Source of the DNA: Oligoflexia bacterium
Lineage (GTDB): Bacteria; Bdellovibrionota; UBA1018
DNA length: 64,000 bases
Assembly: GCA_903895855.1 (NCBI GenBank)
Contig: CAITVN010000072.1
Location: forward strand, 67,932-131,931
Direction: 5' to 3'
Part shown: in pieces, positions 13,752 through 27,142 of the stretch
Layout: the number at the start of each line of letters is the position of its first letter
How positions within the stretch are numbered: position 1 is the stretch's first letter
Translations under genes and position numbers: made by a program
The notes under the pieces: model-generated
Told to the model about the DNA's origin: nothing
The model's database searches: none
What the model saw: the letters and a program-made list of their open reading frames with translations, nothing else

Positions 13752-16205
13752 CTAATTTTCTTCAGGCTCTGGTGGATCTAGCACCGGATTCGGATCTTTT
13801 TCACCTGGCGGATGCCCCGAAGTCGGGTGAGTTGGAGTCACAGAACCGCCATTGGAGTGCGTCGAAGGAGTCACTGGCGCTTCATCTTCCCACCAATTGA
13901 CTGTGCCACTTCCCGAACCGCCGTTTGGAGGTGTCGTTCCTGTGCCACCGGTTTCTGGAGTTTCTTCTTCTGAATCATCACCGCCCGCAGCAGGTCTTGT
14001 CGGCTTGTTGTTTTGATTTTGCTGGCCTCCGCCTCCACCACCGCCGCCGGTTGTCGGCTCAGTCGTGTCACCCGTGTTTTCATCGCCTGTCGATTCACTT
14101 GGTGCAGGCCCCATTCCTAGCCAGAACAAGAATTTTGCGGTGTAGTGCGACTGAAAGAGTAAATAGTCGGCCGATTCTGCACCCAAGACAGCAGCAATAC
14201 CCAATTTTTTTGCGGCATACTTTACGACCCCTTCAGCGTAACCGACATAGCGCTTCCCGGTTTCAGTCGTCGTGAAGCCTTTGCCTTTGCCGAAAATGGC
14301 CTCGCTCATTTTGTCGAGGTTGTTGATCATGATGCGATTTCTAAATGAATACGTCGAAACGGCAACTTTGAGTTCACGCCAAACGAGCTCGTTGGTCGAC
14401 ACACTCAAACCCTGCCGATACAGTTGGTACCAAGAATCAACTTCTTGCTGACTCACCAAGAAAGCGGTTGGCAACAGAACTGGAGAACCGATCAAATCAT
14501 TTTTCAAAACTCCATGGGGCAAGTTAATGAAAAGTTCTAGCTTTTCATAGTCATCAATGAATTGAATGAGAGAGTCTTCGAGATCTTTTGCCTTAATTGA
14601 AATCTCCTTAGTCAGATTGGCTAGCTTCGCATCGATCAAATCAAGCTGGGTCTTCTTAGTATAAATTTTCGTTTTGATTTCTTCTCTAGTGACTGGACTC
14701 TCTAATTGTTTCAGCTCGCCTTTATCAATAATGATTTGAATTTTGGTTTCGTCAGCCGCAGACGTCAAAGCCTTCACTTGTCCCTGCAGAGACTTAATTG
14801 CCTTCACTTCGTTGATCACTTCGCCGTGTTTGCCACCGACACCACCCATGCCTCGCAGGCGTCCGGTGATACCCAACATCTCATTTTCAACGTAAGTCCA
14901 AATTTTCTCAGTTTTCAGCTCAGTCTTCTTGATCAGCTTTTTTAGCGCTTCATTTCTCACTTTTTCGTCGTTAGCAAGTAGACCAAGACTGGCAGTCACT
15001 TCGTCTTGTGCATCTGCTTGAATCAATCCTTCGAGTGAACGCTTTCGATCGTACATCAAAGTCTCAGGGGTCATGCCGCCGTCTGAAAATTTGACTAATG
15101 ATTCAGAGCTATCAGAATTGAGCTGACCGTAAAGCACCGGATTTCGCTTAACCGCCTCAACGTATGCCATCACTTCCAATCGAAACTGACCGTAAGAGTT
15201 GACCCCGTCCATCTGTCTCACTCGGGAGCGTATAATATTGAGATCATATTCACTATAGGGTGTCGTTCCTTTAACTCCAACCCAAGTCGTGACATCGAAC
15301 TTTGAACGCACGAGCGCTCGAAGCACACCAATCTGACCTTTTTGGCGAATGACCATTTTTTTAATAGGATTCAACTGCAGCGTATCGGGGTCGATAATGT
15401 CGTTGAGATCTCCTAGGTTTTTATCTTTCAAAGGATCTTTTAATTTGATTTTTCTAGCACCATCAGAGGTGTAAGTATCGGCAGCGGGTTCGGCACCCAC
15501 AGCCCCCGGCACTGTGCCGGTAGTCCCCTCAGCAGACAAGCTTTCAGTCGTTTCACCTGCGGTGCCTTCACCAGTAGGCGATTCTCCCGATGTGGCAGTC
15601 GGCTTATTAGCACCAGTAGGTTTATGTCCAAGAATGTCAGCCAATTCTCCGGTTTCACCGCTGGCGCTGCCCACGCCTTCTGAAACGGTTGCGACTTTAT
15701 TGACCTTAATCAAGTGAGGATTTTGACTTTTTGCTAGTGCCGACAGTTCTTTCAACCAGTTTGCATCAGCAGCAAAAGAATTCTCAAAGTAGTCGCGAAT
15801 GAATCTATCTTGTTTACTGCCAACCCCTTCTTTTTGTACTTCATCAAAACTTTTCTTGAATTCGACTGAAAATTTTTCGTCAAGCTCTCGAATGAGGTCG
15901 TAAAGTTCGCCTTTTTTTGACGAATAAACAGATTTGCGAAATTCGCCAATAAACGCCAGGTATTCGCTTTCAGAAATTTTTGGTAACGCCGTCGAAATGA
16001 AGAGTTCTGCGATTCTCTTTCCTACCGGAGTGTTTCGAATCAGGTATTGCCCTAGCTTTTGATCGAGAAGATCAGCCGCCTCAGCATTATGGTAGGGCGC
16101 CACAAGCGCCACAACCGAAACCGTGGTGAGCGTTGCCACCGTCAACGGAGCTGAACATAGGCTGATGAACACTGCTGCTAAAACTCGATTTTTTTGATTT
16201 TTCAC
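13752..16205 (-). CDS. large secreted hypothetical protein with low-complexity tails
   Basis: 817 aa, GTG start, signal-like N-terminus. The C-terminus contains a GGGGGGGG run and a Pro/Thr/Gly-rich segment. No recognised catalytic motif. Confidence 0.55.
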   Translation of the reverse strand: MKNQKNRVLAAVFISLCSAPLTVATLTTVSVVALVAPYHNAEAADLLDQKLGQYLIRNTPVGKRIAELFISTALPKISESEYLAFIGEFRKSVYSSKKGELYDLIRELDEKFSVEFKKSFDEVQKEGVGSKQDRFIRDYFENSFAADANWLKELSALAKSQNPHLIKVNKVATVSEGVGSASGETGELADILGHKPTGANKPTATSGESPTGEGTAGETTESLSAEGTTGTVPGAVGAEPAADTYTSDGARKIKLKDPLKDKNLGDLNDIIDPDTLQLNPIKKMVIRQKGQIGVLRALVRSKFDVTTWVGVKGTTPYSEYDLNIIRSRVRQMDGVNSYGQFRLEVMAYVEAVKRNPVLYGQLNSDSSESLVKFSDGGMTPETLMYDRKRSLEGLIQADAQDEVTASLGLLANDEKVRNEALKKLIKKTELKTEKIWTYVENEMLGITGRLRGMGGVGGKHGEVINEVKAIKSLQGQVKALTSAADETKIQIIIDKGELKQLESPVTREEIKTKIYTKKTQLDLIDAKLANLTKEISIKAKDLEDSLIQFIDDYEKLELFINLPHGVLKNDLIGSPVLLPTAFLVSQQEVDSWYQLYRQGLSVSTNELVWRELKVAVSTYSFRNRIMINNLDKMSEAIFGKGKGFTTTETGKRYVGYAEGVVKYAAKKLGIAAVLGAESADYLLFQSHYTAKFLFWLGMGPAPSESTGDENTGDTTEPTTGGGGGGGGQQNQNNKPTRPAAGGDDSEEETPETGGTGTTPPNGGSGSGTVNWWEDEAPVTPSTHSNGGSVTPTHPTSGHPPGEKDPNPVLDPPEPEEN

Positions 16206-16295: not shown

Positions 16296-17390
16296 TTAGC
16301 AAATTCGAGGCAACTGCTCGCCGCTCGGCATATCAAGAACCCGAGTCACCCCAATCAATCCCTCGATCAAAACCCGAGACCGCCCACCTGATTCAACAGC
16401 CCCAATTTCGCAACTTTGTTCACCCACTTCGAAGCGTTTCATCACCTGAAGGGCTCTTTCAACATCACTTTCAGGCACAAAGGCCACTAGCCTACCCTCA
16501 TTAGCCACCGACAAAACATCTAAACCCAACATCTCGCATGTGCCCCTCACCTCAGCCAAAACTGAGACCGCACTCTCGCGAATTTTGATTTCAACTCGAG
16601 CCTTTTGGGAGATCTCATTGAGTGCACTCACCAACCCACCTCGAGTCAAGTCTCTCAAACAATGTATTTGAACTCCCGCCTCAACTAACGCCAAAACCAT
16701 CGGCGATAACGGCGCACAATCACTTCTAATGGTAGTCTCAAATTGAAGTCCTGACCGCGCTGCCATGATGGCAATGCCGTGGCGGCCGAGATCACCACTA
16801 ATTAGCACACGATCTCCCACGCAAACGCTACTCGGCTCAATTTTCAGTGAATGCTCAATTACTCCTACACCAGCCGTATTGATGTACACTCCGTCGCCTT
16901 TGCCTTTTTCGACAACTTTAGTATCACCAGTAACTATTTTAACACCCGAAAGGTCTGCCGCGATTTTCATCGAGCGCACAACTTTAATCAAACTCTCTAT
17001 TGAAAATCCTTCTTCTAAAATAAACCCAGCACTCAAATACTGGGGCCGAGCGCCACTCATCGCGAGATCGTTTACCGTTCCAAAAACCGCAAGCCGACCG
17101 ATGTCTCCACCCGGAAAAAAAAGTGGGTTCACCACATAAGAATCAGTCGTAAACGCAATGCGCCCCGAAGGCATCGGTAGCTGTGCACTGTCGTGCTCAT
17201 TTGACAAAAATTCATTCGTGAACTCTTTGGCAAAGAGTTCTTGTATGAGTTTTTGCATCGTGCGACCGCCGCCGCCATGAGCCATCACGATTTTTTCTTG
17301 AGCAGAAAACCCGGTGTGAAAAGGAATGGGGCAATTGAGAAATTCAGTCATGACTCGACACTCCTTCGATAGCGATAATAAGCCGAACAC
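16296..17390 (-). CDS. hypE: hydrogenase maturation protein HypE
   Basis: 364 aa AIR-synthase-related fold. The C-terminus ends in the PRIC motif characteristic of HypE. Confidence 0.9.
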
Positions 17391-18448
17391 GCACCTTCTG
17401 ACGAAACCATCGGCGCTCCCATCGGATTCTCAGGATTACACGAAACACCAAATGAAGGGCACTGCGAAGGTTTTCTCACCCCCTGAAGAATCAAGCCACT
17501 CATGCACTGAGGATTTTCTAAGCTCGTTTCATCTCTTAAATTAAATTTCTTTTCAGCATCAAATTTTTCGTATTTTCGAGCCAGCCTAAGTCCACTTTCA
17601 GGAATGGTACCTATGCCTCTCCAATTCTTGTGAAACACTTCAAAGACTTCACCTAAGAGTTTTTGTGCGTGAAGGTTTCCCTCAGCTCTCACCGAACGCG
17701 TGTACTGATTTTCGAGGGCAAAATTTCCTGACTCTAACTGAAGCACACACATCAAGAGTCCCTGCAAAATATCAAGAGGTTCAAACCCCGTAACGACAAT
17801 CGGCACTCGGTACTTGGTCACCAATGGCTCATAGCCTGCCATACCCATCACCGTACACACATGCCCCGGAGCGAGAAACCCCTGCACTCGATTTTCAGGC
17901 GACGACAAAATCGCGTCAATTGCAGGCGGTACCAAGACCTGTGACACGAGCAATGAAAAATTCGTTAACCCAAGTTGAGCGGCGTTCATCGCAGCCATCG
18001 CATTCGCCGGGGCGGTGGTCTCGAAACCAACGGCTAGAAAAACCACTTCTCGCTCACGATTGTCTTGTGCCACTTTGACAGCATCAAGCGGAGAGTAGAC
18101 AACTCGCACATCAGCACCCTCGGCTTTTGACTTCAACAAATCGGTTGAAGTACCGGGCACCCGAAGCATGTCACCGAACGAGCACAGAATAACATTCTTA
18201 TTCAAAGCGAGGTCTATCGCCGAATCAATCACAGAAACTGGAGTCACACAGACCGGACAGCCGGGACCGTGTATGAGATTGACTTGGTTCTTTAGAAGCT
18301 CATCAATGCCATACTTAACTATTGAATGGGTCTGTCCTCCGCAGATTTCCATGATATTCCACGACCGGGTCGCAGCACGAGAAATCGCATTCACATACTC
18401 TTTGGCCAGCGAAGCATCTCGATACTCGTCAATGAATTTCAAATTCAT
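17348..18448 (-). CDS. hypD: hydrogenase maturation protein HypD
   Basis: 366 aa with conserved GPGCPVC and CGxH-type cysteine motifs. Overlaps hypE by 43 nt. Confidence 0.9.
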
Positions 18449-18720
18449 AAAGGCATACCTGCCTTTTTTTCGGCAAACTCTTCATTTTGAGATTTGAGAT
18501 AGTCAAAAACAAATTGAGCTTCAACTTCGTCAATGACCGAAAGGGCAAACCCAACGTGAATGAGCACGTAATCACCGACTCTGGCCTCGGGCACAAAAGC
18601 CAAACTCACTTCTTTGACTACGCCGCCGATACTCACCCGTCCAACGGCAGTCAACTCACTTTCATTACCCAACTCAGGAAGCGAAATTTCAATGAGCTTT
18701 GCAGGAACTGAAAGACACAT
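18445..18720 (-). CDS. hypC: hydrogenase maturation protein HypC
   Basis: 91 aa beginning MCLSVP, the HypC MC(L/I)(A/G)(I/V)P motif. Confidence 0.85.
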
Positions 18721-18751: not shown

Positions 18752-21088
18752 TCAACCCACCGAACACCCAAATGCCCGACTGGCCGCCTGGCCAACAGAA
18801 AGGCCCCCATCATTGGGAGGCACCCGATGGTGCCAATAGGCAGCAAACCCCATTTGCTGAAGCCGATCAATAGCCAGTTCAGAAAGTACGCGATTTTGAA
18901 AGCACCCTCCCGTCAACAAGATACGGCTAACCTTTGAACGCTGAGCCATGACGCCAATCGCATGAGCGAGAGTCAGATGAAACTTCAGTGAGATTTCAGA
19001 AACATGAACCCCAAGTTCTTGATCTTTGATGACTTCCTGAATGAACGAACCCCAGTCAACTGTACCATCAGTACCGATTGACACCGAGTAGGGCCGAGGC
19101 AAATCGCCGCCGGCTAACAAAACCTGCGCAGCCAATGCCTCAATTCTCATTGCAGCTTCGCCTTCATAGCGACTCACCTGCACCACACCGAGTAGAGCAG
19201 CCACGCCGTCAAAGAGTCTACCCACACTGCTCGTTAAGGGCGAATTGATTTTTTTCTCTATCATCGTATGAATGAGCACGAGGTCGTGATCACTTAACCC
19301 GTGACCGAACCGCGAGCAAAGCGCAAGAAACCGGTCAAGATCTCCGCACGCAAGCTCTCGCATCATGCTCACGGCCGAAAGCCTCGGCTCTTTCACCGCC
19401 TTTTCGCCCCCAGGAAGCGCAAACTGCCGAAGACTGCCCACGTGTTCGAATCCTTGTGAATGAACGACCAAGAACTCTCCACCCCAAATCGAACCGTCGA
19501 GCCCGTAGCCACTTCCATCCCAAGCGACACCGAAAACAGCCTCGGCCTTCTCACGAGCCAGACCAAGCGCTAGTTCATTATCTACCAAACACGATAAAAC
19601 ATGAGCGTGGTGATGTTGAACCAAAACCCGAGTTAGCCCCACCCATTCTCGCGATTCGAGAATTTGGCTCGTGAAATATTCCGGGTGGCGATCACAGGCA
19701 AACTGAACTCGGTCAGCACCAAAATTTTCTACAGCTTTCGATAGGCCCGTTTCATAATCATCACGAGCGTTGACCGAATCGAGATTACCAAAGTGGGGCA
19801 TTAAATTTATATATCTATTATTTAATAATGATAAGGTGTTTTTTTCCTGGCCACCCAAACCAATGATGAAGTTTCCCGGAACCTTCAACCCCAATTCTAA
19901 CTTCAAGGGGGCATAACCACGCCCAGCCCGAAAAACGGTTTCTTGACCCGATATTTCGCGCACAACCGAATCGTCGACACGAGAAACGATTTTGCGATCA
20001 TGAACTAAAAACCCATCAGCAACACCAAAGAGAACACGCAAGGCTTCAGATTTTTCAAAACAAATCGGCTCGTCAGCAATGTTTGCGCTCGTCACCACTA
20101 ATGGCCTACCAAACGCTTTCATGATCAGGTGGTGAAGCGGCGTATAGGGCAATAAAACGCCCAAAGTAGAAAGCCCTGGTGCGACAGTATCAGCTATAAA
20201 GCGATACTCACCCACTCGGTTCAACAGAACAATCGGAGCCCCCACGCTCGCGAGCATTCGCGACTCAACATCAGACAATGCACAGAGTGCTCGCACTTCA
20301 CTCACACTCGCAATCATGACTGCAAACGGTTTACTCTCTCGCTTCTTTCGTTCTCGAAGTCGCTGCACGGTCTTGTTGGCCCCAGCATCACAAACTAAAT
20401 GAAATCCACCAATACCTTGAATGGCTAGAATTTGGCCCGCATTCAAGGCATCAACCACACCTAGCAGGGCTTGTTCGCGAGTTGAGACCACACCACCGCC
20501 ACCATCTATCAACGTCAATGACGGCCCGCACTCAGGGCAAGCGTTGGGTTCGGCATGAAAACGCCGATCACTCGGATCATCGTACTCAGCTTGGCAGCTG
20601 TCGCACATTTTGAACTCACCCATACTGGTATTCGCCCGATCGTAAGGCAGCGCCTTTATGATGCTATACCTCGGACCACACTCAGTACAATTCGTGAACG
20701 GATACTGAAAACGCCGATTTTTGGGATCAAAAATCTCTAAACAGCATTTCCCACAGGTCGCCAAATCGGGCAAAATTTCTGCATCAGATTCACCGTCGGG
20801 CACCGCAACAACACTCGAAGTCAGAATGCTGAACTCGTGATCATTTTGAAGTTCGATTTGCCAGCTCTCATTTTTTCGCAAACTCGCATTTCGCGGAAGC
20901 TCACTACTCAAGCGCGAACTGAATGCATCGACTGAAGTCAGTAGCCCCTCAACTTCAATTTGGACACCTTTTTTCGTATTTTTGACAAACCCAGAGAGGC
21001 TTAACTCGCACGCTAGCCGATAGACAAAGGGCCGAAACCCAACCCCCTGAACTCGCCCCTGCAGGTTAAATACTTTTCGAATCTTCAT
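18752..21088 (-). CDS. hypF: carbamoyltransferase HypF
   Basis: 778 aa with an acylphosphatase-like N-terminus, two Cys-rich zinc-finger repeats, and YrdC-like and Kae1-like domains. Confidence 0.9.
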   Translation of the reverse strand: MKIRKVFNLQGRVQGVGFRPFVYRLACELSLSGFVKNTKKGVQIEVEGLLTSVDAFSSRLSSELPRNASLRKNESWQIELQNDHEFSILTSSVVAVPDGESDAEILPDLATCGKCCLEIFDPKNRRFQYPFTNCTECGPRYSIIKALPYDRANTSMGEFKMCDSCQAEYDDPSDRRFHAEPNACPECGPSLTLIDGGGGVVSTREQALLGVVDALNAGQILAIQGIGGFHLVCDAGANKTVQRLRERKKRESKPFAVMIASVSEVRALCALSDVESRMLASVGAPIVLLNRVGEYRFIADTVAPGLSTLGVLLPYTPLHHLIMKAFGRPLVVTSANIADEPICFEKSEALRVLFGVADGFLVHDRKIVSRVDDSVVREISGQETVFRAGRGYAPLKLELGLKVPGNFIIGLGGQEKNTLSLLNNRYINLMPHFGNLDSVNARDDYETGLSKAVENFGADRVQFACDRHPEYFTSQILESREWVGLTRVLVQHHHAHVLSCLVDNELALGLAREKAEAVFGVAWDGSGYGLDGSIWGGEFLVVHSQGFEHVGSLRQFALPGGEKAVKEPRLSAVSMMRELACGDLDRFLALCSRFGHGLSDHDLVLIHTMIEKKINSPLTSSVGRLFDGVAALLGVVQVSRYEGEAAMRIEALAAQVLLAGGDLPRPYSVSIGTDGTVDWGSFIQEVIKDQELGVHVSEISLKFHLTLAHAIGVMAQRSKVSRILLTGGCFQNRVLSELAIDRLQQMGFAAYWHHRVPPNDGGLSVGQAASRAFGCSVG

Positions 21089-21093
21089 CTCAT

Positions 21094-21825
21094 CTAATTC
21101 GCAACCGAACCCAGTCGAACGTAGTCAAGCCACGCATCTAAGCCCTGGCCAGTCTTCGCACTCAAACACAAAATCGGAGCGGCTGCGTTCACACCGCGTA
21201 TGTGCTGAACACAGGTCGCAAAACTGAACTCTAGATACTGAACCAGGTCGATCTTAGTGATGACAATGAGATCAGCCTCATGAAAGAGTAACGGGTACTT
21301 CGATGGTTTGTCTTCACCCTCGGTTGTCGATAGTATGGCAACTTTTCGGCTTTCTCCCAAATCAAACGACGCTGGACACACCAAATTACCCACATTCTCA
21401 ATGATCAGGTGACTAAACTCTGGCTTCACAAATTCACCCAACTCGCCTCGAATCATCGCAGCGTCTAAATGGCACGAACTTGCTGTATTCAATTGCTTGA
21501 CCTTCGCGCCAGCGGCCTCAAGCCTCTTAGCATCAAAGTCTCGTTCTTGATCTCCAACCAGAATGCCAAGGTTGATCGAGTCCTTCAAGCGAGTACTCGT
21601 TTTTTCTAAGAGCAGCGTTTTTCCAGAGCCCGGAGCACTCATCAAGTTGAACACCAACAGCTTGTGATCTAAAAACCATTGGCGATTGGTTTCTGCAATT
21701 TTGTTATTCTTATCTAAGATCGACGTCTTAACTTCAATTTTTCGAAATTTTAAATTTTCTTTTTCTCTTCGAATCTCTTCAAATGCGACTTTATTGGCTT
21801 GTTGGCAACCGCAGTCTATACACAT
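21094..21825 (-). CDS. hypB: hydrogenase nickel-incorporation GTPase HypB
   Basis: N-terminal MCIDCGCQ metal-binding motif and GSGKT P-loop. Confidence 0.9.
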   Translation of the reverse strand: MCIDCGCQQANKVAFEEIRREKENLKFRKIEVKTSILDKNNKIAETNRQWFLDHKLLVFNLMSAPGSGKTLLLEKTSTRLKDSINLGILVGDQERDFDAKRLEAAGAKVKQLNTASSCHLDAAMIRGELGEFVKPEFSHLIIENVGNLVCPASFDLGESRKVAILSTTEGEDKPSKYPLLFHEADLIVITKIDLVQYLEFSFATCVQHIRGVNAAAPILCLSAKTGQGLDAWLDYVRLGSVAN

Positions 21826-21854
21826 AAATCAACCTTTCTCAGCGTTCAACTCTG

Positions 21855-22100
21855 TCACAGAACATCTAAGTCAATGATTCGAAAGTCTCGACCCAGTTTC
21901 ACAAAATCTAAAATCAATTGAGCTTCTTCTAAGATCGACCCTTTGCAAACTTCTGGAAAGCAAAATTCAAAACAGTGCCGATCGACACCGCTCAATTCTC
22001 CGAGCTCTAAATGAATTTTGACCACCCGCTCAAATTTTTCTCGCACCGCAATTTCGGCAACCTGTTCGACAAGCGCCGTTGCTAATGAAAGCTCATGCAT
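21855..22100 (-). CDS. hypA: HypA-like nickel insertion protein, truncated (no zinc-finger domain)
   Basis: 81 aa with an MHE N-terminus (Ni site) and a HypA-like helical N-domain. The ORF stops 29 nt before hypB, and no CxxC...CxxC zinc motif is present. Confidence 0.7.
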   Translation of the reverse strand: MHELSLATALVEQVAEIAVREKFERVVKIHLELGELSGVDRHCFEFCFPEVCKGSILEEAQLILDFVKLGRDFRIIDLDVL

Positions 22101-22566
22101 CGAACACCTTCGACACTTCGTTGAGTGCAGCCGCTAAGTTCAATCTTGCTGCTGGCGTCAAACCTTCTTCTAGATTCCATTCGTAACCCAAAACTGCCAA
22201 TAGAAAGGTTCGAGGCATTCGTCCATATAACTTCTGACACAAATTCAACACAGCACCAGGGCTCATCGAGTGGCTGGTAAACGCGAATTCGTCTTCGGGG
22301 GTCACCTCTCGAAACTGGTATGGCCAACTAACCCCTTTTTCTTGGCTAGCGTCAACAAAGACCACGATCTCATACTCAGAAATAAGCAGGGCGTCTTCAA
22401 CGTTGAGTTGATAATTCGAATCAAACGCCGCCCAAGCAGGTAAACTCTTCTTCTGAAGCTGCTCAATCACTTCGACCCCCAACGCATCGTCTCGACGCCC
22501 CGGGTTGCCGATTCCGTAAAATAAGACACGGTCACTAGGCTTTCGAGCCAATACTTCGAGGTTCAA
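22093..22566 (-). CDS. hoxW: hydrogenase maturation endopeptidase (HoxW/HybD family)
   Basis: 157 aa with VLFYGIGNPGRRDDALG, the HycI/HybD protease signature. Confidence 0.8.
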   Translation of the reverse strand: MNLEVLARKPSDRVLFYGIGNPGRRDDALGVEVIEQLQKKSLPAWAAFDSNYQLNVEDALLISEYEIVVFVDASQEKGVSWPYQFREVTPEDEFAFTSHSMSPGAVLNLCQKLYGRMPRTFLLAVLGYEWNLEEGLTPAARLNLAAALNEVSKVFDA

Positions 22567-24038
22567 GTGCCTGCTCCGTCAAAGTCACCCACATTTTTAA
22601 TTCTGCGGTCAAGTTGATTGCCGTCCAAATCCTGCAAGACCAGCTCTAAAGGCATCTGCCCAACTGCATGAGTCGCACAACTGAGACAAGGGTCGTAGGC
22701 ACGGATAGCAACTTCGACTTGGTTCAGCATTCCCTCAGGAATTTCCTTATGACCGTTGATCACCTTTTGTGCAACCCAAGTCACCCCGCGATTCATGGCC
22801 TCATTATTACTCGTCGTTGAAACAATCAAATTACATAGGGTGATCTGGTCATTTTGGTCGACACGGTAATGGTGAAATAAAGTGCCTCGCGGGGCCTCAA
22901 GAACCCCAACCCCTTCGCCCGACCTCTCACCGGTTTTGACCAGTTCTCCGTGAATGATATCGGGATCTTTCAAAAGCTCGCGAATCATCTCAATGGCATG
23001 CAACGCTTCAATGAGCCTTGCCCAGTGCATGTGCATCGACATGCCATTGGGTTTACCTTGAGTATAGGCTTTGTACTGCTCAAATTCTTTTTGTGCTAAC
23101 GGAGTCGGAATGAAGTCACAAGTGTTGAGCCGCGCTAGTGGGCCCACTCGATACCAACCCTTTTCAGAGCCCAGCGAAATAATGTGTGGAAACTTCATGT
23201 AAGTCCAACTGCGAACTTCTTCTGTGATGTAGTCGGAATAGTTTTGATAATCGACTTGATCAAAAATCTTTGCGCCGTCGCTATCAACGGCTCGCAAAAC
23301 GCCGTGATACAAATCAAGAGCCCCATCTTTTCGTACTAAGCTCAAGTAATTTGATGAAAATGCGGCAAAACCATCAATGAATTCGTGGTTCTTCTTGTGA
23401 TAACCTTTGAACAATTCAAGACCCTCTTGAATCCAGTCAACCATCAGGTCAACGTTAAATTCTGGAGTCCCCACCAACAACTGGTCGCGCTCTTCGGGCG
23501 TCAGTCTCTTATTCACTCCCCCCGGAATGGCTCCGGTGCCATGAATTTTCTTTCCAGCCGTCAGGTGAATCACAACTTGGCCAAATTTTCGCATCAAAAC
23601 AGCTTTTTTAGCAATCTCGGGAAATGCACCAATCACGCCGATGATATTTCGCTTGAGAGGATCTGAATTGACACCGAACAAGAGATCGGGCGAAGCCAAA
23701 TGAAAAAAATGTAAAACATGAGACTGAAAAAACTGACCGTAATGCATGAGTCGGCGCATTTTGTCAGCCGTAGCAGTTAACTCACCCGATGAGGTGCCCA
23801 CTATCACATCCATTGCTTTTGAGGCACACAACTGATGACTGACCGGACAAATGCCACAGAGCCTTTGCACAAGCACTGGCGCTTCCCAAAAGGGACGCCC
23901 CTGCACAAAGCGCTCAAACCCTCGAAATTCAACGATATGAAGCCTACTTTGAACGACCTGATTATTGTCATCAAGCTTGATCGTGACCTTGCCATGCCCT
24001 TCGACTCGAGTAATCGGTTCTATGGTTATTTTTCTCAT
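22563..24038 (-). CDS. hoxH: [NiFe]-hydrogenase large subunit, NAD-reducing/bidirectional type (HoxH)
   Basis: N-terminal RVEGHG and RLCGICPVSH motifs. C-terminal DPCLSCATH is followed by a cleavable extension. 491 aa is typical of group 3 enzymes. Confidence 0.9.
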   Translation of the reverse strand: MRKITIEPITRVEGHGKVTIKLDDNNQVVQSRLHIVEFRGFERFVQGRPFWEAPVLVQRLCGICPVSHQLCASKAMDVIVGTSSGELTATADKMRRLMHYGQFFQSHVLHFFHLASPDLLFGVNSDPLKRNIIGVIGAFPEIAKKAVLMRKFGQVVIHLTAGKKIHGTGAIPGGVNKRLTPEERDQLLVGTPEFNVDLMVDWIQEGLELFKGYHKKNHEFIDGFAAFSSNYLSLVRKDGALDLYHGVLRAVDSDGAKIFDQVDYQNYSDYITEEVRSWTYMKFPHIISLGSEKGWYRVGPLARLNTCDFIPTPLAQKEFEQYKAYTQGKPNGMSMHMHWARLIEALHAIEMIRELLKDPDIIHGELVKTGERSGEGVGVLEAPRGTLFHHYRVDQNDQITLCNLIVSTTSNNEAMNRGVTWVAQKVINGHKEIPEGMLNQVEVAIRAYDPCLSCATHAVGQMPLELVLQDLDGNQLDRRIKNVGDFDGAGT

Positions 24039-24040
24039 TT

Positions 24041-24595
24041 TTAGTCGTACCTCACTAAATCAAAATTGAGTTCATCGAGAGATTTTCCGGCGATCAAAAG
24101 ATTCAAGGCTTCCCACAGGAGATCAGCTCTTGGTGGGCATCCAGGTAAGTACCCATCGATCTTCACAATCTCATGACAGGGGTAGACTCGATCGAGTAAC
24201 ATCGGAATTTCTTCATCGTTCGGTATTTGAGAACTTTTGCTGTCTACAGTCGGGCCAGTTAAGAAAGCCTCTTTAAATAATTCAGCTACCGGAATGCCAT
24301 TTCGAAGAGCGGGTAAACCACCAGTAATGGCACATTGGCCGACCGACACTAAAATTTTGCAGTGTTTTCTAAAGTCTCTCAACACCCTGACATTTTCGCT
24401 ATTGCAGCAACCGCCTTCAATCAGGCCAATGTCACACATTTGAGTGAACTCTTTAATATCGTCGATCGGTGATTTGTCGAAAGTGACCAACTCTACTAGA
24501 TCTAAGATTCGCTCATCAATATCGAGAAGTGACATATGGCATCCGAAACAGCCCGCAAGTGAAGTGGTCGCCAGCACTAATTTTTTCTTTTTCAT
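24041..24595 (-). CDS. hoxY: [NiFe]-hydrogenase small subunit (HoxY)
   Basis: 184 aa with Cys motifs for the proximal Fe-S cluster (GCFGCH, GCP). Short group 3 small subunit. Confidence 0.85.
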   Translation of the reverse strand: MKKKKLVLATTSLAGCFGCHMSLLDIDERILDLVELVTFDKSPIDDIKEFTQMCDIGLIEGGCCNSENVRVLRDFRKHCKILVSVGQCAITGGLPALRNGIPVAELFKEAFLTGPTVDSKSSQIPNDEEIPMLLDRVYPCHEIVKIDGYLPGCPPRADLLWEALNLLIAGKSLDELNFDLVRYD

Positions 24596-25290
24596 AGCTG
24601 TTTACCATCCTTCTCATGTTTGCGATCAAACCGCCTCTGACCAATGGGCACCCGAAAGCCAACACGTTTTTGAATCAATGCGCCTACCGGGCAAATTTCC
24701 ATCGCTTTTTTTGCCGTCGCTTCTGAGACCGCCTCCGGATCAGTGACATCCACGGTGATTCGAACATCACTTCCCCGGCGCATGAATCCGAAAATTTCAT
24801 GCCCATCTTTCGCACGAACCCCGCGAACACAGCGCAGGCACTGAATGCAACGCTTATGCTCGATAAATAAGTGCGCCATTCGCGCTTCAACCTTCTGAAC
24901 CGGAAACAAAAACGGATATCGAGGCACCACAATTCGATAGTGATGGGCCAACTCTTGCAATTCGCAATTACCGCTCTTTTCACAGCTAGGACACATGTGA
25001 TTGCCCTCGACAATGAGCATTTCTACTAGAGCTCGTCTAAGATCAGTGAGCTCAGCGGTTTCATTCTCTACGACCATGCCGTTGACCGCCGGACTCGTAC
25101 AACCAGGCACAAATCGCCCTCCAACCTTTACCGTACAAACGCGGCAAGTTCCGGCAGGACTCAAACTTCGAAAATCACAAAGGGTCGGAATAAATAGTCC
25201 ATTCTCGCGCGCGGCCTGAACAATGCTCTGGCCCTCTTTGGCAACACACTCTTTTCCGTCAATCGTTAGACTAATTTGGCCTTGTTCCAT
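24592..25290 (-). CDS. hoxU: diaphorase Fe-S subunit HoxU (NuoG N-terminal-like)
   Basis: 2Fe-2S ferredoxin N-terminus plus 4Fe-4S cysteine clusters (CIQCLRC). Confidence 0.85.
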   Translation of the reverse strand: MEQGQISLTIDGKECVAKEGQSIVQAARENGLFIPTLCDFRSLSPAGTCRVCTVKVGGRFVPGCTSPAVNGMVVENETAELTDLRRALVEMLIVEGNHMCPSCEKSGNCELQELAHHYRIVVPRYPFLFPVQKVEARMAHLFIEHKRCIQCLRCVRGVRAKDGHEIFGFMRRGSDVRITVDVTDPEAVSEATAKKAMEICPVGALIQKRVGFRVPIGQRRFDRKHEKDGKQL

Positions 25291-27142
25291 CTACCACCTC
25301 ACTATCAATTTCAAGATTGGGTTTTCGGTTAGCAGCTACGCAAGAATCAATCACAGCAAACTTCAAATCAAACTGCGACAAGAAGTCGACATCTGCTCGA
25401 ACTTTCTTTTGATAAATCTCAGTGAAATTTCGAATAGTACTCAACAACGGGTGCGGTGAGCTCTGACCCAATCCGCAGCGCGAGGTGGCTTTAATCGTTT
25501 TGCCGAGCTGCTTTATATTTTCAATATCAGCGGCGGTTCCGTTTCCAACCATGATTTTCTCTAGTGCCTTAATTAGAAGGGTATTGCCCGTTCGGCAGGG
25601 AACACAGAAACCACAGCTTTCATCTTCAAAAAACTCCATGTAGTTGTGAACAATCGACAGAAGATCGCGTTTTTGACCAAAAATAGTGACGGCGCCACCA
25701 GTCGATAGATCAGAAAAACAAAGTTTTCGATCGAATTCATTCTGCGAAATACACTGGCCTGATGGCCCCCCCACCTGAACCGCTAAAACATCTTTCGCGC
25801 CACAAATTGCCAAGAGCTCGCGAATCGACATTCCCCACTCCACTTCGTAAATCCCCGGTCGTTCACAATCACCCGCGACACTGAGAACTTTCACGCCACT
25901 CGATGCTGGGGTGCCCATTTTTCTAAACCAAGCAGCACCGTTTAAAATGATTTTTGCGGCGGCTCCGAAAGTCTCAACATTATTGACGATGGTTGGCCTT
26001 CGAAGGTATCCCGAAGTCACCGGATACGGCGGTCGATTTCTCGGCTGACCTCGCTTACCCTCAGCCGACTCAATGAGCGCCGACTCTTCGCCACAGATGT
26101 ATGCACCAGCTCCAACTTTAATCTGAATATCAAAACTAAACCGAGTGCCTAATATTCGGCGGCCCAACAAATGTTCTTGGCGCATCTTTGTCAGAACATT
26201 CTCTAAATAATCCTTCAAATAGGCGTACTCGCCCCTCAAATACAAAATTCCGTGTTTGGCTTCGATAGCATAGCCAGCGACTGCCATTCCCTCAAAAATC
26301 AATTCAGGCATTTCGGTAAGCAGCACTCGATCTTTAAACGTACCGGGTTCACCTTCATCAGCATTGCACATGACATAGCGAGTTTCAGACTCGGCAGCCC
26401 GACAAAAACCCCATTTTTGGCCCGTATCAAAGCCAGCACCGCCGCGCCCTCTCAAACCAGACTGTTTGACTTCATCGATCACTTCGAGCGCTCCGTGATT
26501 CATCGCAGCTTTTAATGCGGTACCTGGTTCAAAATCGGTAAAGAACACTGGCCCTCGAACTCGAATGTGATTAGACACTTCAGCATGAATTTCTTCTAGT
26601 GCATTTTTACCATCGCCAAGCGACTCAACGAGATCTCGCACGGGCCGATTGGCTTTCATACCAGCGACTATTTTTGTGACTTTCGCGTCAGTCATTCGGG
26701 TGAAAACTACATCATTAATTAGAATCGCAGGCTCTTGATCGCACATGCCAATACAAGAAGTTGTTCTCAAACCGATCTGCCGATCACTCGTCGTTTCTCC
26801 GAATGAGATGCCCACCTCTCTTTCGAATGCCTTGACTATCGCATGAGAACCCGCCATCTCGGCAGTCGCACTAGTGTTCACATAAACTGTGTAATTACCC
26901 CGATGAGTGCGCGAAAGAAAATGATAGAATGTAGCAACTCCCTCAACATGAACGCGCGAGAGATCCATTTCTTCGGCGATGAGAGTGATTACTTGCGGCG
27001 ACAAGTGCCGCCATCTACTCTGACATTCGCGCAAAACAGCCAAAAGTTGTGTTCTATCACCGCGAACCTGATCAATGATTTCGATGATGACATTTCGAGT
27101 TTCGTTCAAATCAAGAATCGTTCTCTCGTTCATGCAGAACAT
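25271..27142 (-). CDS. hoxF: diaphorase flavoprotein HoxF (fused NuoE-like and NuoF-like)
   Basis: 623 aa with an N-terminal thioredoxin-like 2Fe-2S domain and a C-terminal NADH/FMN-binding domain (GAGAYICGEESAL) with a 4Fe-4S site. Confidence 0.9.
   Translation of the reverse strand: MFCMNERTILDLNETRNVIIEIIDQVRGDRTQLLAVLRECQSRWRHLSPQVITLIAEEMDLSRVHVEGVATFYHFLSRTHRGNYTVYVNTSATAEMAGSHAIVKAFEREVGISFGETTSDRQIGLRTTSCIGMCDQEPAILINDVVFTRMTDAKVTKIVAGMKANRPVRDLVESLGDGKNALEEIHAEVSNHIRVRGPVFFTDFEPGTALKAAMNHGALEVIDEVKQSGLRGRGGAGFDTGQKWGFCRAAESETRYVMCNADEGEPGTFKDRVLLTEMPELIFEGMAVAGYAIEAKHGILYLRGEYAYLKDYLENVLTKMRQEHLLGRRILGTRFSFDIQIKVGAGAYICGEESALIESAEGKRGQPRNRPPYPVTSGYLRRPTIVNNVETFGAAAKIILNGAAWFRKMGTPASSGVKVLSVAGDCERPGIYEVEWGMSIRELLAICGAKDVLAVQVGGPSGQCISQNEFDRKLCFSDLSTGGAVTIFGQKRDLLSIVHNYMEFFEDESCGFCVPCRTGNTLLIKALEKIMVGNGTAADIENIKQLGKTIKATSRCGLGQSSPHPLLSTIRNFTEIYQKKVRADVDFLSQFDLKFAVIDSCVAANRKPNLEIDSEVVDGTRPN

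Follow-up and report, generated by a model that had tools for sequence, protein, structure and literature searches.

Can a HypA nickel chaperone that lacks its zinc-binding domain still serve hydrogenase maturation? The question is raised by a hypA gene in a 64-kb stretch of DNA from an Oligoflexia bacterium (64,000 nucleotides of contig CAITVN010000072.1; hereafter the window), whose product of 81 amino acids (aa) has the nickel-binding start of the HypA/HybF proteins and is devoid of the cysteine pairs that form their structural zinc site. An earlier note on this DNA, made from the sequence alone, left the choice between a naturally minimal HypA relying on the MCxxCGC motif of HypB, a decaying gene, and a frameshift or assembly error. 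The zinc-finger domain is described as universal in reviews; a 2025 minireview counts it as part of the conserved HypA architecture, and a 2026 JBC paper presents it as conserved architecture that is essential for partner interaction. Our analysis revealed a class of zinc-less HypA proteins that departs from this description. We estimate at roughly 0.78 the probability that the gene in the window is an intact, selectively maintained hypA encoding a functional single-domain nickel chaperone, which works with HypB on the large hydrogenase subunit HoxH.

An intact gene without a zinc ribbon

The hypA gene occupies positions 21855..22100 of the minus strand and encodes a protein of 81 residues (MHELSLATALVEQVAEIAVREKFERVVKIHLELGELSGVDRHCFEFCFPEVCKGSILEEAQLILDFVKLGRDFRIIDLDVL; start MHELSLATALVEQ, end RIIDLDVL*) with the predicted order of elements a1-b1-a2-b2-b3. 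The MHE nickel motif of HypA/HybF stands at its very N-terminus. Pfam family PF01155 (HypA) matched residues 1-68 over profile positions 1-68 of 112 with 61.7 bits (E 8.1e-17; gathering score 28.9 bits), and the reading of the open reading frame (ORF) together with this match bore out the length and the N-terminal MHE start given in the earlier note. As the note had also stated, the CxxC pairs are absent: there is none in the 81-aa protein, which is thus left without the structural zinc site of HypA/HybF, and stops abound in the other two frames of 21780-22130, neither of which encodes Cys pairs.

The stop codon (21855-21857) lies 29 nt before the hypB ATG at 21825, exactly as first read. The spacer between the two genes (21826..21854, minus strand) contains the Shine-Dalgarno-like sequence GAAAGG, 7 nt ahead of the hypB ATG, has no open frame and is too short for a zinc ribbon; since 33 codons do not fit into it, the claim that the gap is unable to encode the Cys pairs holds. 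At its other end hypA overlaps the hoxW stop by 8 nt (ATGCATGA). A frameshift or hidden exon was considered and rejected on the three-frame translation of 21780-22130, which has no coding potential for the Cys pairs. The possibility that a small ORF nearby supplies the ribbon in trans was likewise rejected for the window, where a six-frame scan of all 64 kb for CxxC-X(8-30)-CxxC found only two motifs, both in the zinc-finger domain of HypF.

Our own HypA hidden Markov model (HMM), built from 27 full-length relatives, found no second hypA in the six-frame translation of the 64-kb window. It matched the window protein strongly to profile positions 1-68 and additionally placed residues 67-80 on the last strand (99-112). 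This second segment scored 2.1 bits, was flagged '?' and is statistically insignificant; it is consistent with retention of the last strand and loss of the middle. A scan of the window against Rfam gave no matches.

At least six ENA assemblies, the products of different assemblers, contain the identical 81-aa protein, which recurs on 10 or more contigs, and all copies of the gene share the order hoxF-hoxU-hoxY-hoxH-hoxW-hypA-hypB-hypF-hypC-hypD-hypE. A seventh assembly (L001, protein P0001) contains an equally long HypA variant that differs by four substitutions. Its DNA is identical to that of the window for 838 nt and then shows 15 differences, all of them in hypA and 11 of the 15 at third codon positions. 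The 11 synonymous and 4 non-synonymous changes correspond to dS 0.23, dN 0.022 and dN/dS 0.09 (Nei-Gojobori); therefore, the hypA frame is read and is under purifying selection. The 81-aa hypA is a real and intact gene. The segment of L001 concerned (1-1023, equivalent to window positions ~21845-22867, minus strand) comprises in its identical part the end of hoxH, hoxW and the first 71 nt of hypA; the 15 mismatches are concentrated in 172 nt, and the contig ends 10 nt past the hypA stop. The switch inside hypA marks either a point of recombination between strains or a junction at which the assembly is chimeric.

The missing segment and the predicted fold

The closest full-length relatives of the window protein, P0002 and P0003 (114 aa each, from uncultured bacteria), are 38-39% identical to it by BLASTP and 53-54% identical in alignment A1. 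In this alignment a single in-frame gap of 33 residues covers both CxxC pairs, and the flanks are colinear. P0002 is composed of an N-terminal part of 67 aa, a middle of 33 aa (GVELYCDLCHKISFPEDPSAIFCIYCHSGEVVI) and a C-terminal part of 14 aa (RQGKEFKVIDLDVL), whereas in the window protein the N-terminal 67 aa are joined without a middle to the C-terminal 14 aa (KLGRDFRIIDLDVL); the terminal IDLDVL is common to the two. Unlike the window HypA, both relatives have retained the 33-residue zinc ribbon with its two CxxC pairs. Their genes occupy the same hoxW-hypA-hypB slot within hoxFUYH...hypFCDE, with a hoxW/hypA overlap of 8 nt in P0002, as in the window, and of 18 nt in P0003. Since P0002 and P0003 hold this very slot in an otherwise conserved cluster, the ribbon was lost in situ.

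The same segment is missing in comparison with characterized proteins. Canonical HypA/HybF proteins (Escherichia coli HypA and HybF; Helicobacter pylori 2KDX/6G81; Thermococcus kodakarensis 3A43, 5AUN and 5YXY) share with the window protein the MHE motif and a hypB-adjacent gene; their CxxC-Xn-CxxC ribbon (H. pylori ~70-98) is absent from it, and His98 of T. kodakarensis HypA has no counterpart. A profile of zinc-less HypAs aligned to H. pylori HypA with positions 1-68 on 1-69 and 64-79 on 99-114. The zinc ligands of the H. pylori protein are Cys74, Cys77, Cys91 and Cys94 (PMC7055735), all of which are spanned by the gap, because the alignment resumes only at residue 99.

An AlphaFold2 model of the window HypA, computed from an alignment of 18 zinc-less HypAs, reached a mean pLDDT of 88.9 and a pTM of 0.71. 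It consists of a helix (2-21), a strand (26-34), a second helix (41-52), a strand (61-67), a five-residue turn and a final strand (73-80). When the model was compared with the PDB by Foldseek, all 14 matches at E <= 0.001 were HypA structures (3A43, 3A44, 5AUN, 5AUP, 5YXY, 5YY0, 6G81, 2KDX; TM normalized to the query 0.70-0.77), the next match having E = 0.12. For T. kodakarensis HypA, also as found in complex with HypB and with HyhL, its Ni-domain and the model superposed at 1.1-1.4 Å over 63-68 columns. The prediction for the window protein is thus a complete HypA Ni-domain, in which a hairpin closes off the zinc excursion. Without exception the 18 zinc-less homologues carry H2 and E3, and the residues kept across all of them are M1, H2, E3, G34, F46 and L62.

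Distribution, history and contexts of zinc-less HypA

The earlier note had advised a search of relatives for equally short HypAs, and many were found. With phmmer, 668 of 1.84 billion cluster representatives matched at E <= 0.001, and among the best 150 representatives (50% identity) about 20 proteins of 80-92 aa matched end to end. These share the MHE start, contain no CxxC and continue directly after strand 2 with a strand of the form G-x-[DE]-[FL]-x-[VIF]-x-x-[LM]-[ED]-[VI]. The profile of 18 zinc-less HypAs retrieved 5321 HypAs at E <= 1e-5; among the best 120 clusters (90% identity) 101 were complete proteins of 80-100 aa with no CxxC at all. They originate from Acidobacteriota, Alphaproteobacteria (including cultured Azospirillum) and Bdellovibrionota. 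Examples are UniRef100_Q01S86, which we take to be the protein of Solibacter usitatus Ellin6076, HEY1496909.1 (Ca. Solibacter sp.), MCL2469499.1 (Alphaproteobacteria) and GAB4018817.1 (Bdellovibrio sp.), and a tblastn search of PLSDB added 80-aa zinc-less HypAs of Azospirillum lipoferum 4B (WP_044552756.1) and A. argentinense Az39 (WP_051658428.1), both annotated in RefSeq simply as HypA. Like the window protein, these named HypAs are short (80-82 aa), begin with MHE, have no CxxC and place the C-terminal strand, here of the form G-x-[DE]-[LF]-x-[VIF]-x-x-[LM]-E-[VI], directly after strand 2; they differ from it in sequence (30-52% identity) and in being tied to other hydrogenase types.

A pattern-based scan of GTDB representative genomes yielded 54 HypA loci, none of them close to the window, whose species is absent from the set scanned; the zinc ribbon was present in all (three, from Acetobacteraceae, with a CxxC plus CxC variant) except one frameshift artefact. 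The zinc-less form is therefore common in absolute terms yet a minority among HypAs. Three 108-aa HypAs from Acetobacteraceae/Alphaproteobacteria metagenome-assembled genomes (MAGs; L021, L024, L025) contain one CxxC pair and, as second motif, 'C-x-C-G-G', which gives the impression of a variant zinc site.

Over the first 66 residues, most zinc-less HypAs have a full-length HypA as their nearest neighbour (P0029-P0003 67%, P0062-P0021 68%); the window protein itself comes closest to P0006 (59%). A neighbor-joining tree was built from 211 representatives, 50 of them zinc-less, over 81 shared columns. Fitch parsimony on this tree required 19 changes between the short and long states, with 16-29 over 100 bootstraps as against 37-49 with shuffled labels; the count, drawn from 81 columns, is noisy and surely inflated. 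The zinc-less state was clustered on the tree in clades of 11, 9 and 6 representatives and was never monophyletic. Judging from these sequence comparisons, the zinc ribbon was probably lost several times independently in different HypA lineages, in some of them long enough ago for the short form to have diversified.

In all contexts examined the zinc-less hypA genes lie beside hydrogenase or maturation genes. Hox-type hoxFUYH-hoxW clusters accompany them in the window and in the loci of P0046, P0073 and P0078, and P0029, which is encoded in a hoxW-hypA-hypB arrangement on short contigs, is listed with this type. In one Hox cluster (L063 9377-9880; L064 1672-2175) a 167-aa protein with a cNMP-binding domain is encoded between hoxW and the zinc-less hypA. 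Group-1h-like operons with large and small subunit genes, DUF5947/DUF6084 genes and a protease gene were found in L066 (Ca. Solibacter) and L067, and a group-3b-like cluster in L068; in L069 the only companion is a protease gene. In L068 (10001-20243) and L069 (9525-12188) the zinc-less hypA follows the protease gene with no adjacent hypB, and the two loci have downstream methyltransferase and helix-turn-helix (HTH) neighbours in common; L068 runs on into a prophage-like block with terminase, portal and capsid genes. In Azospirillum the neighbours are fdhF and hyf genes: on plasmid AZO_p3 of A. lipoferum 4B (L071 9001-9243) and in A. argentinense Az39 (L072 6001-6243) the zinc-less hypA immediately follows fdhF and stands opposite a hyf-type (group 4) hydrogenase cluster. 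The first six contexts had suggested a strict link between zinc-less HypA and Hox enzymes, which was contradicted by the group-1h-like, group-3b-like, orphan and Hyf/FdhF contexts.

The suggested reliance of a minimal HypA on the MCxxCGC motif of HypB did not prove to be a general rule. The HypB partners of zinc-less HypAs have CxxCGC in the Hox-linked loci and lack it in the group-1h-like loci (L066, L067), and full-length HypAs are paired with both kinds of HypB; hence there is no general dependence on this motif.

Proposed function, alternatives and significance

The genes around hypA form, all on the minus strand, the series hoxFUYH-hoxW-hypA-hypB-hypF-hypC-hypD-hypE, i.e., a hyp operon joined to a [NiFe] hydrogenase. 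The hypB GTPase gene (21094..21825) encodes 243 aa (TIGR00073, 260.9 bits) with the N-terminal motif MCIDCGC (CxxCGC) and no His-rich stretch. It is followed by hypF (18752..21088, 778 aa), which contains the sole CxxC-Xn-CxxC motifs of the window, hypC (18445..18720, 91 aa, MCLSVP start; PF01455), hypD (17348..18448, 366 aa; PF01924) and hypE (16296..17351, 351 aa; PF00586/PF02769). On the other side of hypA lie the genes of the HoxW-type maturation endopeptidase (22093..22566, 157 aa; TIGR00072, 61.3 bits), the large subunit HoxH (22563..24038, 491 aa; HoxH (PF27537)/NiFeSe_Hases), the small subunit HoxY (24041..24595, 184 aa; PF01058), the diaphorase Fe-S subunit HoxU (24592..25290, 232 aa; PF13510/PF10588/PF22117) and the NAD(P)-binding diaphorase subunit HoxF (25271..27142; 623 aa by ORF, 620 aa in the gene call of locus L002; PF01257+PF01512+PF10589). 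The Pfam assignments of HoxH, HoxY, HoxU and HypF were made on identical proteins in L002, those of HoxF on the matching L002 protein, and those of HypC, HypD and HypE likewise in L002. The N-terminal NuoE/HoxE-like 2Fe-2S thioredoxin-like domain of HoxF (PF01257) is fused to a 51K domain, and there is no separate hoxE. A HupE/UreJ nickel transporter gene is located upstream of hoxF in the P0002 and P0003 relatives and is missing from the window. Directly downstream of hypE an ORF of 817 aa (13752-16205, minus strand) has no NCBIfam or Pfam match; L002 has it in the corresponding position, and so does L003, where the contig end cuts it short. The TopA protein of the window shares about 71% identity with proteins of MAGs assigned to Bdellovibrionales, Oligoflexia or Bdellovibrionota, so that the DNA stems from an uncultured member of Bdellovibrionota.

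HoxH contains all four cysteines of the Ni/Fe site (RLCGICPVSH and DPCLSCATH) and a C-terminal extension of 33 aa, and hoxW and hypBFCDE are intact. Because both Cys pairs, the extension and the HoxW-type protease are present, the HoxH client and its nickel-dependent checkpoint look normal. Together with HoxY and the HoxF/U diaphorase these features characterize a Hox-type enzyme, and the presumed client of the window HypA is a group 3d-like, NAD-linked bidirectional [NiFe] hydrogenase, a class read from Pfam domains and gene order alone.

The window protein has lost its zinc-ribbon insert of roughly 33 residues by an in-frame excision, and a tight beta-hairpin turn (K68-L-G-R-D72) stands in its place. 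For the resulting mini-HypA we infer the following sequence of events. The protein, its gene situated just upstream of hypB, would be translated in a coupled manner with hoxW. It would dock on the HypB GTPase, which carries the N-terminal CxxCGC and a conserved aliphatic pair, the contact being made via the start of the HypB G-domain. In E. coli HypB, mutation of two aliphatic residues at the start of the G-domain abolishes HypA binding and maturation (PMC3287977). Residues 28-237 of the window HypB align to positions 76-285 of an E. coli-type HypB model, which places Ile30 and Val32 on model positions 78 and 80; they may represent the pair that docks HypA. The mini-HypA would receive Ni(II) at its N-terminus through the N-terminal amine, His2 and Glu3 and pass it on to precursor HoxH, whose active site is open at this stage, whereupon HoxW would cut off the 33-residue C-terminal extension, and the zinc domain would be dispensable for the whole process in this organism. 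To our knowledge, none of these delivery steps needs the zinc ribbon in bacteria, and the large subunit reportedly makes its contact with the Ni-binding domain of HypA. The N-terminal tail of the HyhL large subunit contacts the HypA nickel site (PMC7055735, summarising Kwon et al. 2018).

Several observations weigh against a functional single-domain chaperone. The window protein scored 54.2 bits with the NCBIfam equivalog model TIGR00100, whose cut-off is 88.1, and likewise stayed under the cut-offs of all other NCBIfam HypA models; the low TIGR00100 score arises because the protein leaves one third of the model without a match. Replacement of Cys by Ala in the zinc site of H. pylori HypA reduces hydrogenase activity to 9-15% of the wild-type level (PMC7055735 citing PMC5557546). 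The nanomolar Ni site of the T. kodakarensis HypA-HypB complex uses His98 (PMC7055735), a residue of the segment missing here, so that a high-affinity state of the window protein, if any, must be built differently. For every zinc-less HypA, Ni binding and maturation activity are predicted properties. A full-length hypA may also exist elsewhere in the genome, our search having covered the 64 kb of the window, and A. lipoferum 4B has, besides its zinc-less gene, full-length 113-aa hypA genes on other replicons, e.g., plasmid AZO_p2 (L073).

The Azospirillum genes bring to mind a specialised auxiliary paralogue, i.e., a mini-HypA that works only beside a canonical two-domain HypA encoded elsewhere. 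By analogy with E. coli, in which HybF and HypA split labour, such a paralogue might be a hydrogenase-specific adaptor or might form mixed complexes. HypA paralogues do confer hydrogenase specificity (PMC12134894), the pairing of an 80-aa gene beside fdhF/hyf on AZO_p3 with the full-length genes of A. lipoferum 4B would fit this explanation, and so would the zinc-less hypA genes of L068 and L069, which have a protease gene and no hypB. The gene in the window, in contrast, belongs as hypA to a complete hypABFCDE set and fills the slot of the full-length hypA of its closest relatives. Apart from the window itself, six further zinc-less loci lack a second hypA over a distance of 10 kb, and an HMM of full-length HypAs run against six-frame translations of the window and nine related loci found one hypA in each. 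We consider an auxiliary role unlikely for the window protein.

A decaying or neutral relic, in which deletion of the ribbon inactivated HypA and nickel is inserted via HypB alone, via SlyD or at high nickel, is less likely still. Defects in hypA and hypB can be bypassed by high nickel (PMC12134894, PMC3287977), and zinc-site mutations cripple the H. pylori protein (PMC7055735). A relic is nevertheless hard to reconcile with a dN/dS of 0.09, with the MHE and core residues kept across zinc-less proteins that are 36-51% identical to the window HypA, with zinc-less clades of 11, 9 and 6 representatives that diversified while retaining the architecture, or with an operon that has kept the hoxW coupling overlap and contains no pseudogenes. 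The decaying gene proposed in the earlier note thus appears unlikely in view of the recurrence, the selection, the fold and the large set of short HypAs, and the same four lines of evidence (identical recurrence, purifying selection, an in silico fold and the short-HypA set) support its suggestion of a naturally minimal HypA.

Its remaining proposal, a frameshift or collapsed region hiding a normal 113-aa hypA, is excluded, since the same ORF stands in at least six independent assemblies and in a diverged strain, no frame encodes the Cys pairs, 29 nt cannot hold 33 codons and the flanks are colinear with full-length relatives. Artefacts of this sort do exist: in a nanopore-derived Solirubrobacterales MAG (L051 10001-11059) HypA reads through into HypB to give a 352-aa product, and on the long-read-style contig L067 many hydrogenase and hyp genes are split into fragments. 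These irregularities are indel artefacts that mimic domain loss.

More speculative is a selective advantage of the loss: it would rid HypA of an oxidation-sensitive, zinc-dependent Cys4 site and might permit maturation under oxic or zinc-limited conditions. In the loci compared here, zinc-less forms tend to accompany hydrogenases that are cytosolic or associated with oxygen (Hox-type, group-1h-like, group-3b-like), and their hosts belong to mostly aerobic groups (Bdellovibrionota, Ca. Solibacter, Azospirillum).

Zinc-less HypAs constitute a widespread and apparently undescribed class. No description of them was found in full-text literature searches, which left most subscription papers outside their scope, so that an earlier mention is possible; the sequences themselves are already public under the name HypA. 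Annotation models such as TIGR00100 place these proteins under their cut-offs. The class bears on the role of the HypA zinc domain, which may be structural, regulatory or one of partner selection. The 81-aa and 114-aa HypAs in the same operon slot are matched natural pairs for testing this role, and A. lipoferum 4B and A. argentinense Az39 are tractable cultured hosts. The existence of such a large natural class indicates that the Ni-domain alone very probably suffices for nickel delivery; its members are encoded in maturation operons that are otherwise complete, and they are under purifying selection. In practical terms, a smaller, zinc-independent chaperone could simplify the heterologous production of Hox-type hydrogenases. 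A more far-reaching and rather doubtful proposition is that the ribbon is an accessory module outside the nickel-insertion mechanism, discarded many times independently; if so, the 81-aa protein would define the minimal nickel insertase.
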